Counted from the first letter of the stretch, positions 6,310-14,491 are shown. The stretch is 64,000 bases of DNA from Gammaproteobacteria bacterium (GCA_029881795.1 JAOULX010000011.1:41083-105082); one strand, 5' to 3'. Notes: generated by a model not told the origin, from the letters alone. Numbers and translations: made by a program.

Positions 6310-7100
6310 TTTTGTAAAGTGTAGATACAAGGTTGAGGTCGACTGCATGGATGCAGGAGGTAGAGCAACGCAGGAGCGGTTGCCGAGAGGTACGAACCCC
6401 AACGGTTTAAAATGTAAGAGTAAAGTTAAAGGCGTGGGTTCGCGTACCCACAGGCGTAAGTCAAAAGCAACCGATGGTTGACCGGTAGCAAGTCACTTTT
6501 CTGTCAACAGCTACAGAAAACTAACGAAAAGAAAGCCGCCCCGTTAATCAAGCTCTCATTAAAAAGCAATGAGAGTACCCTCGTCAGTCGCAATATCGAC
6601 GGCTGCTGCGGACAAATTCGATTTTTAATTTGAACGTGCCGCTTTTTGCACGGCCCGAAGGGCGAGCATCCTGAAGATGCGAGTAACAATCCAAACATTC
6701 TATTCGGCCTGTCCATGGGTCTCACCTTTCAGGCTGCCTAGAAAGCAGGCATTCAATATTGTCCTTTCCTCTGCTTGCTTAAATGGGTGGGTGAATCAAA
6801 GACAAAAAACACTCTTTCTTTTTAGTTTTTGATTTTTCTTTATGTTTTTGATTTACACCTCCCCATTAGAGCAAGCCGAAGCATGAGTGATTTCTGTGGG
6901 GCTTTCTGCGAGGATGTCTGAGCATGTTGTTTATGCGAGTTCCGCAGCAGCCACAGAAATTAGGAGTAATGAGGGAAACTTTATCGCTGTTTGATGATGG
7001 CTTGTGAACTGGGGCGTATTCTTTGGGTTACGTTTCTTGTGTACGAGCAAGAAAGGTAACACGCCCGTCGGTGCGGGAACCGACAGTTTTGACTTAGATT
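6310..7100. repeat. Copy A of an ORF-less, hairpin-rich mosaic repeat element (modules X, W, Y) immediately after the tsaD stop codon
   Basis: Modules are shared with 30440-31110. X is 6336-6400 (contains palindrome CTGCATGGATGCAG). W is 6480-6600, reverse-complement of 30960-31095, and contains GAAAGCCGCCC plus hairpin CTCTCAT-AAAAAGCA-ATGAGAG. Y is 6822-6965, direct match to 30832-30985: GGGGCTTTCTGCGAGGATG...GAGTTCCGCAGCAGCC. There is an internal inverted repeat GGCTGCTGCGG (6585-6597) / CCGCAGCAGCC (6940-6950). Confidence 0.55.
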
Positions 7101-7281
7101 TTGTTGTTCATCCTACAAACCATGAACAATACAGTAATATTTCAATCTTTAGTGTCTTGTTCGAATTGTATTGCTCTTTCATGGTTTTTCAGTCGGTACA
7201 GGGTCTTGTGATTAAATCAAACAGTAAAAATTAAAATTTCAGGGTATCTGAAATATAAAACTGGAAGCTATAAAAGTGAAT

Positions 7282-10104
7282 TTAACAAATCAGGTCTTCA
7301 ATAGTCTTTAGTAATGTCGAGTTTTTTACAGGCTTTCTTAAAAAAGCACGTATACCTATTTCTTTGGCGCTCTTTTCATCGATGTGTTCGCTAAAGCCTG
7401 TACAGAGAATGATGGGTAGTTCGGGTCTGATAGATAATATTTCTTGTGACACTTCTTTGCCAGTAAGGTTGGGCATGGTCTGGTCGGTGATGACGGCATC
7501 AAAGTTGTTAGGTGATGCTTTAAAGGCAGCTAAAGCAAGTTGGCTGTTATCAAAGAGAGCAACCTCATAGTCTTTTGATGTAAATACGGCTTCAAGTAAA
7601 TTTAAAATATTTTTTTCATCGTCAATAATTAAAATACGTCTGTTGCCAGTATGTATTTTAGATTTATTTTCTGCTTGCTGAATTCCTGGGGTGTCAGTCG
7701 CCGCAGGTGCTGATGTAATTGGGATGAATAAACTGAAAATGGTTTGACCGGGTTCTGTTTTAACTTGTATGTGCCCGTCATGGTCATGTGTGATGCCGTG
7801 GACCATTGCCAGGCCCATGCCAGTTCCTTTGTTGACGTCTTTTGTGGTCATAAAGGGCTCAAAAATTCGACTGAAGTCCTGTTCTGGAATGCCAGTGCCC
7901 GTATCTTCAATTGAAAATTCTATATAGTCTCCACTGAACTTATGGTGGCAGGCATCGCATAACTGGTTATTAACCGGGAGGCGTTTTACGTTGATGATAA
8001 GATGCCCCTGTTGATTCATTGCATCTTTTGCGTTAATACAAAGGTTAACAAGGCATTGTTGCATCATGACGGCGTCAATTAGTATTGCTGGTAAGTCGCT
8101 TTCGATATTTGTTTCTAAGCTAATGCTTGTTGGGATCATGGGCCTCAACATGCTGACGAGTTCTTTTACAAAGTTATCAATATCGATAACAGCGGCGTCA
8201 CTTTTATTGATGCGAGAATAAGCCAGTAATTTTTGAATCAGGACGCGAGCATTTTCTCCAGAAGTACTGATTGTATTCAAATAGCTTAATAGCTCTTCGT
8301 CATTGAATTTTAGTTTGACTCTTTCTGATGCTAAATCAGTGAATCCGAGTACGCTGTTAAGCATGTTGTTGAAATCGTGAGCAATACCCCCGGTTAACTG
8401 GCCAATTGATTCCATTTTTTGTGCTTGTTGTAATTGGTTTAGCAGGTCTTTTTGGCGCTGTTCATGCTGTTTTTGTTTGCGCATGTCTCTGCCAGATCCC
8501 GCCAATCCGAGCAGGTTACCTTGCGCGTCTTGAATGCGGGCGCCGTTAAAGTAATAAGGGACGATACCATCAGTTGTTATTAAACCGGCTTCGACTTCTG
8601 CCTGACCGCTCTCTAAAGTGTTTTTAATGGCCAATGAAATGGCTTCATGGTCGTCTTTTGCGATCACGTCAAGTGCATGCAGGTTGCCAATTTGATCGGG
8701 TTGTTTACCGGTAACTCGGCTAAAGGTCTCGTTCCACCAGACAATATTGCCGTCAGTGTTTAGACGATACATTACATCGGGTACGGTCGATGTAACGGTT
8801 TCGTATTGTTTGACGACATTGGCCAGGTGTTTTTGTAATGTATGCTGTTCTGTTATGTCCCAAAAAAAACCCAGTACACCGATGAGTTGTTTGTTTTCAT
8901 CGTAAACGGGTGTTTTAACGGTGTTGATGTACCCTTTTTCACTGTTTTCATTTTGATATGTTTCGATAAAGGTAAGTGTTTCGCCTTTGTTGATGACTTC
9001 CTGATCGCCTTGTTGATAAAGTCTGGCGTTATGAGGAAACAGTTCGTTGTCACTCTTGCCGCTTATCTCATGACTGTCGAGTCCAATCTCGTCTGCAAAG
9101 CGTTGATTGCAGGAAATATAGACTGAATTAGTGTCTTTCAAAAATATACTTTCAGGCAGGTTCTCAATCAGTGTTCTGTATTTGTGTTCATTTTTTTCGA
9201 GCGCAAGATTCGCTTTGCGCATACTTCTGGTATAGCCCCAAAGTCCTAGTGAAATAGCAATGAGTAATGCTGTCAGAACAGCAATGCCGGTAATCAGAAA
9301 TACTTCATTCTTTGTGAATCCGGATAAGACGCGTTTACCAAACCACTTGTCATATATGAGTTGATATTTGCCGTTTTTTTTAATTTTTTCGATGCCGGTA
9401 TTTAACTGTTTTAATAAAGTTATGTTGCCTTTTTTTACTGTCATTGACCAGCTGAGTTTTCGCAATGGGTCACCAGTGACTTTTATGTTTCTTTCCAGAT
9501 GTAGTTTTTGCGCTAAAAACAGAATGATTTGCTCGGGATAAATAAATGCATCGGCATGACCATTAATTAGCGCAATTAAGCCTTCTGCAGGCGTGTTTAC
9601 TAAGTAGCAGTCAATTTCTTTAAATTTTTTCAGGTAAATGTGAGTTATGTGGCGATTTACACAAGCTACTTTTAGTCCTGATAAATCACTGATGGAGTGA
9701 ATATTGTATTGTTGGTCACGAACAAAAATGGATTCCGGCATTTCAATAATGGGCTGCGAAAAATCCATTGTTTTAGTCCGCTCAATTGTGTAGCCGGTAT
9801 CGTGAATCAGGTCTGCTTTACCTGAATCTAGCCAGCTGAGTACAGTAGGCCAGCTGCTGCTATGAATATGTGTGGCAGTGATACCCATTTCAAGCATAAC
9901 CGCATCTGCTATTTCAGAAGCAAAGCCTGTTAGCTCACCCTGATCGTTTAGTAGATTGATAGGTGGAAAGTTATTTGATGAGGCAATCACCACTACCGCT
10001 TTGGGAGCCGATGTTATGGTCTTTATGTTTTCCTCAGCCAGAACAGGTGAGAGAAAAATAAGAGTAAGGCAAATAGAGCGCAAACTTTTTTGAGAAAGCG
10101 TCAT
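7282..10104 (-). CDS. Hybrid sensor histidine kinase / response regulator with periplasmic solute-binding (Venus-flytrap, SBP_bac_3-like) sensor, TM, 2 PAS, HisKA, HATPase and C-terminal REC
   Basis: 940 aa with signal peptide. The periplasmic region resembles amino-acid-binding proteins. The histidine box HDFNNMLNSVLGF, G-boxes and a C-terminal receiver (RILIIDDEKNILNLL...) are present. Confidence 0.8.
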   Translation of the reverse strand: MTLSQKSLRSICLTLIFLSPVLAEENIKTITSAPKAVVVIASSNNFPPINLLNDQGELTGFASEIADAVMLEMGITATHIHSSSWPTVLSWLDSGKADLIHDTGYTIERTKTMDFSQPIIEMPESIFVRDQQYNIHSISDLSGLKVACVNRHITHIYLKKFKEIDCYLVNTPAEGLIALINGHADAFIYPEQIILFLAQKLHLERNIKVTGDPLRKLSWSMTVKKGNITLLKQLNTGIEKIKKNGKYQLIYDKWFGKRVLSGFTKNEVFLITGIAVLTALLIAISLGLWGYTRSMRKANLALEKNEHKYRTLIENLPESIFLKDTNSVYISCNQRFADEIGLDSHEISGKSDNELFPHNARLYQQGDQEVINKGETLTFIETYQNENSEKGYINTVKTPVYDENKQLIGVLGFFWDITEQHTLQKHLANVVKQYETVTSTVPDVMYRLNTDGNIVWWNETFSRVTGKQPDQIGNLHALDVIAKDDHEAISLAIKNTLESGQAEVEAGLITTDGIVPYYFNGARIQDAQGNLLGLAGSGRDMRKQKQHEQRQKDLLNQLQQAQKMESIGQLTGGIAHDFNNMLNSVLGFTDLASERVKLKFNDEELLSYLNTISTSGENARVLIQKLLAYSRINKSDAAVIDIDNFVKELVSMLRPMIPTSISLETNIESDLPAILIDAVMMQQCLVNLCINAKDAMNQQGHLIINVKRLPVNNQLCDACHHKFSGDYIEFSIEDTGTGIPEQDFSRIFEPFMTTKDVNKGTGMGLAMVHGITHDHDGHIQVKTEPGQTIFSLFIPITSAPAATDTPGIQQAENKSKIHTGNRRILIIDDEKNILNLLEAVFTSKDYEVALFDNSQLALAAFKASPNNFDAVITDQTMPNLTGKEVSQEILSIRPELPIILCTGFSEHIDEKSAKEIGIRAFLRKPVKNSTLLKTIEDLIC

Positions 10105-13642: not shown

Positions 13643-14041
13643 ATGAGTAAGTTAAAAGAATCGGGGTATAGAGCTCTGGTTGTGGTTGAAGAGATTGGTT
13701 TGCTAATTATTGCGATAGCAACTGTCATTGCAATTGGTTTTGAAGTTGTGCAAATGTTTGAGGCGAAGAAAGTAACGCTTGCTGATCTTTTGTTGTTATT
13801 TATATTTCTTGAAGTATTAGCTATGGTAGGAATATATCTTAAAACGGGAAAGCTGCCTGTCCGTGTCCCGCTTTATATTGCCGTGGTGGCAATAGCCCGT
13901 TATATGATTCTTGACATGAAGAATCTCGATACACTGAGGGTGCTTGGTCTCGCTGGTACTGTTTTAATTCTTACTTTATCTATACTGGCTATTAGATATG
14001 GTCACACTAAATTCCCCTATAAAGAGACAAAAGACAACTAG
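13643..14041 (+). CDS. psiE: PsiE-family (phosphate-starvation-inducible) inner membrane protein
   Basis: 132 aa, 4 TM; LLLLFIFLEVLAMV...IAVVAIARYMILD conserved PsiE motifs. Confidence 0.65.
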   Translation: MSKLKESGYRALVVVEEIGLLIIAIATVIAIGFEVVQMFEAKKVTLADLLLLFIFLEVLAMVGIYLKTGKLPVRVPLYIAVVAIARYMILDMKNLDTLRVLGLAGTVLILTLSILAIRYGHTKFPYKETKDN

Positions 14042-14491
14042 TTAGTTCTTTAAAAAGTCGCTAAAACGGGTCGCTCTTTTTGGCTTGATTGTAATAAGGA
14101 CTGGGGTCATAGGAAGGATGCACCGAAACTATTGCAATAATACTTTTAATAATAGGCTTGGAAGTTTTTGGATTTTCCTGATTCGAGCAGTTTGCCGGGT
14201 TTTCAAATAGCGATCTTAATACGGCTTTCTGAAAGCTGTTATTGTATTTTTTTAGCTATTACTAGCCAGTGAATGCTGCTGCTCGGTTTACTCCTTAGCA
14301 TGACGGGGTGTCTTTTCTAATGCCGAGTTTCATTTGCTTTATTATCAGGTTATACCTTGTCTGATTATTTCTCTGGTCAGTTTTCTGGTTTGTGAAAGTT
14401 TAGAAATAACTTCGCAGTTAGCTAAACAAGTAACGCTACAAAAATGGGTAGGTTATTTAATCTATCCCTGTGTTATAAAACTATTAATAAC

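Follow-up and report, generated by a model that had tools for sequence, protein, structure and literature searches.

Hotspots of gene turnover that lack mobile elements diversify through recombination at the core genes that flank them (Oliveira et al. 2017, PMC5635113), unequal crossing-over in transformation gives rise to merodiploids and tandem duplications (Johnston et al. 2013, PMC3784515), and homology-facilitated illegitimate recombination (HFIR) leaves joints of 3 to 10 bp (reviewed in PMC6382021). Here, we describe the interval between the convergent genes tsaD and plsY, which lie 8.2 kb apart in a 64,000-nucleotide stretch of DNA (hereafter the window; GCA_029881795.1 JAOULX010000011.1:41083-105082) from a metagenome-assembled genome (MAG), deposited at NCBI, of an uncultured marine gammaproteobacterium, in which the contig with the window measures 118,078 bp. 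The interval can be written as tsaD-X1-plsY'-bioH'::'tsaD-X2-plsY-bioH, where X1 and X2 are the left and right cargo and where the second copies of plsY and bioH (plsY* and bioH'*) are referred to as plsY' and bioH'. Both cargo sets are versions of the same single slot, and one duplication-type event of 5,825 bp brought them into tandem. On balance, we think that they represent two diverged haplotypes of a turnover slot free of mobile elements, which came to stand in tandem through a microhomology joint and homologous recombination.

The locus resembles the mobile-element-free hotspots (PMC5635113) in its conserved core flanks, the rapid turnover of its accessory genes, the lack of an integrase, transposase, or tRNA, and the patchwork recombination in plsY-bioH, but it differs from them in that the allele in the window was added in tandem, leaving a microhomology scar and redundant copies of the flanks. 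With the transformation merodiploids (PMC3784515), it shares a direct repeat containing duplicated segments of essential genes, of which one intact copy is kept while the redundant copies are free to decay. However, the unit in the window is 5.8 kb long compared with 100 to 900 kb, one of its flanks is 13 to 15% diverged, and its joint is a 6-nt microhomology and not a pre-existing insertion sequence (IS) repeat. HFIR (de Vries & Wackernagel 2002; Prudhomme 2002; PMC6382021) likewise combines one near-identical end, here the 3' end of tsaD, with a microhomology of 3 to 10 bp at the other end and divergent DNA in between, whereas in the window the illegitimate joint would lie upstream of the anchor, recipient sequence would have been duplicated instead of deleted, and the process is deduced from sequence alone. 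The plsY-ttdR-ttdABT-tsaD locus of E. coli K-12 has the same convergent gene pair with a 4.2-kb accessory operon in the gap, but it holds a single cargo of unrelated genes and no duplicated flanks. Intermediates in the diversification of mobile-element-free hotspots are rarely seen; in this locus, the flanks and the microhomology scar can be observed side by side with the early decay of the redundant copies. It could be used as a worked example of a known way in which bacteria swap accessory genes, involving no new element or mechanism, and as a caution for MAG annotation, given that it includes a truncated plsY as well as a bioH-tsaD "fusion protein".

A self-BLAST search of the window revealed two direct repeats that share one period of 5,825 bp. 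Positions 10827-11742 match positions 14499-15429 with 84.7% identity (E = 0), covering plsY and the first 98 codons of bioH, and positions 5914-6313 match positions 11739-12139 with 98.75% identity (E = 0), covering the last 131 codons of tsaD. On the left, the full-length tsaD (5296-6309, plus strand; TIGR03723, 444 bits) carries its copy of the repeat in the last 396 nt (5914-6309, plus strand). In the middle of the interval lie plsY' (10820-11446, minus strand), bioH' (11445-11738, plus strand), which comprises the first 98 codons in comparison with the resident bioH, and 'tsaD (11739-12134, plus strand), which comprises codons 207-337 and the stop codon. On the right, the resident plsY (14492-15118, minus strand) and the beginning of the resident bioH (15117-15944, plus strand) form the other copy of the 85% repeat. 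This arrangement, a direct repeat of both flanks with only one novel joint, is that of a tandem duplication or merodiploid. The joint leads from bioH codon 98 to tsaD codon 207 within the 6-nt sequence TTAGAG (11739-11744, plus strand), which is common to bioH and to tsaD at 5914-5919. The hexamer is found at the matching bioH position in two related lineages (L081 and L002), and together with a flanking CGG the match extends to 9 of 11 nt. The joint is also contained in an independent MEGAHIT assembly (sample ERZ27296342), in which the contigs L166, L082, and L164 cover the region; contig L082, which is 100% identical, extends across X1, plsY', and the joint and reaches 140 nt into 'tsaD.

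One event of the duplication type, reaching from tsaD codon 207 to bioH codon 98, automatically places both cargo sets at equivalent junctions. A previous interpretation of the window, which we call the sequence-only reading, had taken the two cargos as independently inserted at such junctions, a view that does not hold because the single 5,825-bp event copied both flanks. Its observation that homology stops at the stop codons of tsaD and plsY is confirmed by the alignments: the tsaD copies match as far as the stop codon's first base (TGA in one copy, TAG in the other), followed by about 5 nt of weak match, and the plsY copies align through their stop codons, which are at the same position, and no further. 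The stop codons mark the end of homology because it is there that conserved coding sequence passes into variable spacer.

The bioH' segment is fused in frame to 'tsaD, resulting in an open reading frame (ORF) at 11445-12134 on the plus strand. The joint was seen in no other lineage, and in the collection of 5.8 billion proteins used for the searches for protein uniqueness and for a donor, the fusion protein occurs only once. The BioH(1-98)-TsaD(207-337) ORF retains the GWSLG nucleophile motif and was called by JGI as a 210-aa protein (P0253). Mis-annotation of this ORF is likely.

The extra copies are diverged but show the marks of functional genes. The plsY' copy has 87% nucleotide identity to the resident plsY, with a synonymous divergence (dS) of 0.53, a nonsynonymous divergence (dN) of 0.05, a dN/dS ratio (omega) of 0.10, and 0 indels, and its omega is the same as that of the orthologous plsY compared with L002 (0.096). 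It has the length of the resident gene (627 nt) with its own stop codon, and the sole inactivating change is a TGG-to-TGA nonsense mutation at codon 129 (11060-11062). The plsY'-bioH'-'tsaD mosaic described in the sequence-only reading is thus present, but plsY' is not a fragment as supposed there. For bioH', the comparison with the resident bioH gives a dS of 0.82, a dN of 0.12, and an omega of 0.15, with 26 nonsynonymous differences observed and about 82 predicted for a pseudogene dating back to the split (P = 3e-17). It also has a 5-codon deletion in common with L081. These substitution patterns show that purifying selection acted on plsY' and bioH' during nearly the whole time in which they diverged from the resident genes, and the joint and the nonsense codon in plsY' are therefore young. 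The extra plsY and bioH' were thus functional elsewhere until recently, and the joint formed between bioH and tsaD sequences that had each evolved as functional genes separately from the resident ones.

The divergence of the plsY'/bioH' copy from the resident genes (star-type divergence) reaches the joint, beyond which the first 42 nt of 'tsaD carry 4 third-position synonymous single-nucleotide polymorphisms (SNPs). These are the M2-type variants at 11759, 11768, 11771, and 11780, which correspond to the o-type variants at 5934, 5943, 5946, and 5955 of the full tsaD. After these 42 nt, 'tsaD has 0 differences in 353 nt compared with 5956-6308 (clustering P = 1e-4). The tsaD part is the only near-identical part of the duplicated copies. 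Copies that were identical at formation and derived from the same genome are not what we see in plsY-bioH', where the identity is 85% and omega is 0.10 to 0.15. In a three-way comparison of the extra copy, the resident copy, and L081, the informative sites fall into clusters, forming 47 runs where 72 would be expected (z = -4.3, permutation P = 5e-5), with the extra copy grouping with L081 in bioH' and with the resident copy in plsY. This site clustering, drawn from three sequences only and read with no genome-wide baseline, indicates elevated homologous recombination in the flanking plsY-bioH', and the SNP cluster in tsaD fits. Such a patchwork grouping is what arises when lineages recombine at the flanks of a variable locus, and it fits poorly with a duplication that was purely internal.

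To place the interval among its relatives, we use a survey based on scans of 185,579 species genomes and of JGI metagenomes, which yielded 160 loci. The proximity of tsaD and plsY, which the sequence-only reading had taken as its premise, is well founded, since in E. coli K-12 as well as in 99 fetched loci the two genes adjoin each other and converge. About 20 Thiotrichaceae-like MAGs share the arrangement of hemE-yqeY-rpsU, a divergent tsaD, a convergent plsY, and bioH-bioC. The gap is short in the distant loci that include both 3' ends, with a median of 94 bp and more than 1 kb in 15 of 93. In the genus-level relatives, defined by a PlsY with 85 to 94% identity, the gap is always expanded, to 1.8 to 5.5 kb in 6 complete loci and to about 6.9 kb in L092. 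These expanded gaps share a core, consisting of a gene for an outer-membrane protein (OMP)-like protein that borders on tsaD, a small lipoprotein that borders on plsY, and a DUF4124 protein, to which lineage-specific genes are added: an EEP nuclease with UPF0047 and MscS, a LysR with a nitrilase and GFA, a Pkinase-PEGA-Sel1 Ser/Thr kinase, or a TPR lipoprotein. The 8-kb content of the window was found in no relative. The tsaD-plsY slot is a real gene-turnover hotspot, as the sequence-only reading had proposed; neither a stable 8-kb content shared among relatives nor a breakdown of the synteny, either of which would have contradicted it, was observed.

The locus shows the features of a mobile-element-free hotspot, namely, the same flanking core genes in the same order, differing accessory content, and no mobility genes. 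A Pfam search of 6130-14491, which covered every ORF with a length of 60 aa or more, detected no integrase, transposase, or other mobility gene, and no tRNA was found by ARAGORN. The combination of an integrase with short att repeats that marks a site-specific island is absent, the flanking repeats being gene segments of 400 to 900 bp. The convergent 3' ends of tsaD and plsY probably make the gap tolerant of insertions.

The most informative relative is L081, a Logan contig from another sample with an unduplicated locus. Here, the OMP and the kinase genes are convergent neighbours, followed by a gene for a 127-aa lipoprotein, a full plsY, a full bioH, and bioC. Contig L169 is the tsaD contig of the same lineage and has a repeat A unit (described below) after its tsaD. 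Collinearity between L081 and the left unit of the window starts 12 nt beyond the stop codon of the kinase gene and extends through the lipoprotein remnant into plsY'. The cargo sets were regarded as unrelated in the sequence-only reading, which is at odds with the adjacent kinase and OMP genes in this single unduplicated interval.

The left version of the slot consists of repeat A, the kinase gene, the decayed lipoprotein gene, plsY', and bioH', and the right version of the OMP gene, psiE, plsY, and bioH. In the process that we envisage for the tandem haplotypes, the left version would come from a sister lineage or a co-occurring haplotype, from which a tsaD-...-bioH segment would have been joined end to end, either in a circularised fragment of about 5.8 kb or at a tandem-duplication joint. 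In line with such a source, the sample contains related species living together. This segment would have recombined with the resident chromosome through the near-identical 3' end of tsaD, for which a Campbell-type single crossover, unequal crossing-over in transformation, and HFIR are possible routes. The incoming allele would have been added and not swapped in, with the redundant plsY' and lipoprotein gene now decaying and the kinase gene being kept. The boundary near position 5955 might result from heteroduplex repair associated with the crossover or from a prior near-identity of the two tsaD alleles. A simple Campbell integration and a simple double crossover, both without conversion, were rejected, since they predict divergent tsaD 3' copies where 353 nt are identical. 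From these 353 identical nt of tsaD we infer the homologous anchor that the illegitimate recombination would have used; the left crossover cannot be located. A more specific proposal describes the locus as an intermediate of hotspot turnover caught in the act, in which a self-joined fragment from a sister lineage entered by a single crossover in a core gene, following an "add, then delete" path as opposed to the usually assumed replacement by double crossover. We regard this version as possible but doubtful.

Several points weigh against the tandem-haplotype interpretation. A repaired PlsY' finds no intact PlsY with more than 91% protein identity in the 5.8 billion proteins including cluster members, which leaves the donor outside the sampled lineages. 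A tree of plsY places both copies of the window closest to each other, which an origin within the genome predicts as well. Every version of the model requires an extra conversion or crossover boundary near 5955, where 353 identical nt lie beside 10% divergence, and the complementary content of the copies relative to L081 resembles a duplication with reciprocal loss. Furthermore, the source is a MAG, and the order across the 353-bp identical repeat is not settled by the independent assembly (L166, L082, and L164).

The complementary content leads to a different account, an old tandem duplication of tsaD-repeatA-OMP-kinase-lipoprotein-plsY-bioH within the genome, after which the left copy lost the OMP gene, the right copy lost repeat A, the kinase gene, and the lipoprotein gene, and gene conversion homogenised the tsaD 3' ends. 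It would agree with the L081 lineage, which holds the OMP gene, the kinase gene, the lipoprotein gene, and plsY in one interval and repeat A after tsaD, and with plsY' and plsY being sister sequences. We nevertheless consider this history, including the reciprocal loss, unlikely: a truncated bioH' should evolve neutrally but has an omega of 0.15, the deficit of nonsynonymous differences given above, and 0 frameshifts, and a dS of 0.5 to 0.8 would require three redundant housekeeping genes to be kept in an unstable direct repeat over a species-level time span. Moreover, bioH' groups with L081 and not with the resident bioH, and the absence of the joint from all other lineages also speaks against great age. 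An assembly or population artefact is a further explanation, in which the joint exists but the tandem order results from a false path taken across a collapsed repeat, and the actual arrangement is either a simple tsaD-OMP-psiE-plsY locus accompanied by a 5.8-kb circle or amplified array or pieces of different co-occurring strains. The MAG origin of the window is compatible with this, and so is the independent assembly, since MEGAHIT split the region on either side at exactly k-1 = 140 nt into the identical repeat. L082 has its right end exactly 140 nt beyond the joint instead of 140 nt beyond 11780, the position of the last distinguishing SNP, which suggests a third, normal tsaD allele with the four M2-type SNPs in the sample, where strain variants and related species are found together. 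On the other hand, a 5.8-kb circle would consist of a pseudogene, a fusion gene, and the kinase gene, with no replication function, a k-mer overlap cannot create a 6-nt microhomology joint, and the three contigs fit one path, with identities to the window of 100% for L166 (3521-6096), 100% for L082 (6167-11878), and 99.99% for L164 (11992-24041). The MEGAHIT contigs confirm the joint, and the tandem order is formally equivalent to a simple locus with a 5.8-kb circle; we judge the artefact to be improbable.

We give hardly any credence to the model of the sequence-only reading, in which two cargo sets were inserted independently at equivalent hotspot junctions with repeat A as the mobilising element. 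The variability of the interval among relatives speaks in its favour, and loci with repeat A after tsaD tend to have extra or different genes beside it (L002, L092, L093, and L167). Yet both junction pairs are explained by one duplication-type event, and the model is contradicted by L081, with its adjacent kinase and OMP genes, and by the OMP family being ancestral to the slot. The low GC content is common to the OMP and kinase orthologs and gives no sign of a recent foreign origin. Repeat A itself is missing at three junctions, is conserved after tsaD across species, and has a solo copy in ftsYEX.

Repeat A (6340-7110) is composed of a 48-nt conserved motif and a divergent pair of units of about 290 nt, one at 6440-6700 on the minus strand, which is truncated at its 5' end, and one at 6830-7110 on the plus strand. 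The units belong to two subtypes, each ending in a hairpin and a T-run. Repeat A directly follows tsaD in 6 lineages (the window, L002, L092, L093, L167/L085, and L169). It is absent from the other three junctions of the interval (10105-10819, 12135-12629, and 14042-14491). Repeat copies that bracket each cargo, as in an insertion mediated by an IS or a miniature inverted-repeat transposable element (MITE), were therefore not found, the only copy among the junctions being the one after the full tsaD. The role of mediator suggested for it earlier finds no confirmation in its absence from three junctions and its presence after tsaD in five other lineages. The second copy in the window, a solo unit at 30667-31130, lies between ftsE (29582-30262) and ftsY (31150-32130), where the spacer is 909 bp in the window versus 297 bp in L003, and not at the border of an accessory island, where further repeat modules had been anticipated. 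Rfam searches with the gathering threshold over the whole window and in E-value mode over 6250-7350 returned no RNA family and only chance matches of the hairpin-type microRNA kind. The repeat A unit could be a small RNA gene, a terminator module, or a MITE. Repeat A is an old resident of the 3' flank of tsaD and not demonstrably a mediator. The 48-nt motif (6340-6387) recurs between genes with 84 to 94% identity in far more distant MAGs, after yqeY in L124, after tsaD in L024, and in L015.

Gene calls and self-BLAST place all elements of the interval where the sequence-only reading had put them, with the OMP label alone being unverified. The left cargo includes an intact hybrid sensor kinase of 940 aa (7282-10104, minus strand) with the Pfam domains SBP_bac_3, two PAS, HisKA, HATPase_c, and REC and a transmembrane segment. 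It shares 84% protein identity with its L081 ortholog, with an omega of 0.15. A homolog with 54% identity is found between rsgA and a DegS-like protease on a 213-kb contig from the same sample (L171, 8001-10814), and this core-gene context indicates that the kinase family is not tied to the tsaD-plsY slot. The region at 10440-10772 (minus strand) is a pseudogene remnant of the 127-aa lipoprotein gene sited between the kinase gene and plsY in L081 (tblastn E = 2e-11), with in-frame stops and nucleotide homology to L081, L084, L091, and L095.

The right cargo begins with the gene for a putative secreted or outer-membrane protein of 284 aa (12630-13484, plus strand) with a signal peptide and a C-terminal Phe. 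Its protein identity is 70% to the L081 homolog and 40 to 49% to those of L087, L090, and L092-L094. The family adjoins tsaD wherever a contig includes tsaD, and genus-wide it normally lies directly downstream. Its members are fast-evolving proteins of about 275 to 285 aa with conserved Cys residues, an N-terminal DPFNIYLPF motif, and a C-terminal aromatic residue. The protein had no Pfam, NCBIfam, or PDB profile match, and its single-sequence AlphaFold2 model was unusable (predicted local distance difference test score [pLDDT] of 33). The label OMP is plausible. The psiE-family gene (13643-14041, plus strand; PF06146, E = 3e-23) had no tblastn match in any fetched locus and was thus seen in the interval of none of them.

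The GC content is 0.41 for the kinase gene, 0.38 for the OMP gene, and 0.38 for psiE, compared with 0.47 +/- 0.03 for the 39 long ORFs of the window; the OMP gene is the most AT-rich of the 39, and the kinase gene is about 2 standard deviations below the mean. The description of the cargo as AT-rich in the sequence-only reading is accurate in this respect, but low GC as a sign of foreign origin was rejected, because the orthologs are equally AT-rich (0.37 to 0.39 for OMP and 0.40 for the L081 kinase gene). The low GC content is a family trait and not evidence of recent import.

On the left, the interval is preceded by hemE, yqeY, and rpsU on the minus strand and tsaD on the plus strand, and on the right the resident plsY is followed by bioH, bioC (15937-16743), and ccoN. 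Contig L166, identical to the window over 3521-6096, has 50 differing sites in the last 250 nt of hemE (3271-3520, about 80% identity) and then enters an AAA_16/NPHP3_N NTPase gene, where the window instead has a 1026-aa LVIVD/cadherin-like ORF (9-3089). A second strain-level breakpoint is located here in hemE, again within a core gene's 3' end beside variable content, and its signature, 2 kb away, is the same as that of the tsaD breakpoint. The start codons of plsY and bioH overlap on opposite strands in a CATG palindrome (15116-15119 and 11444-11447), an overlap that is retained in both copies of the window as well as in L002 and L081.

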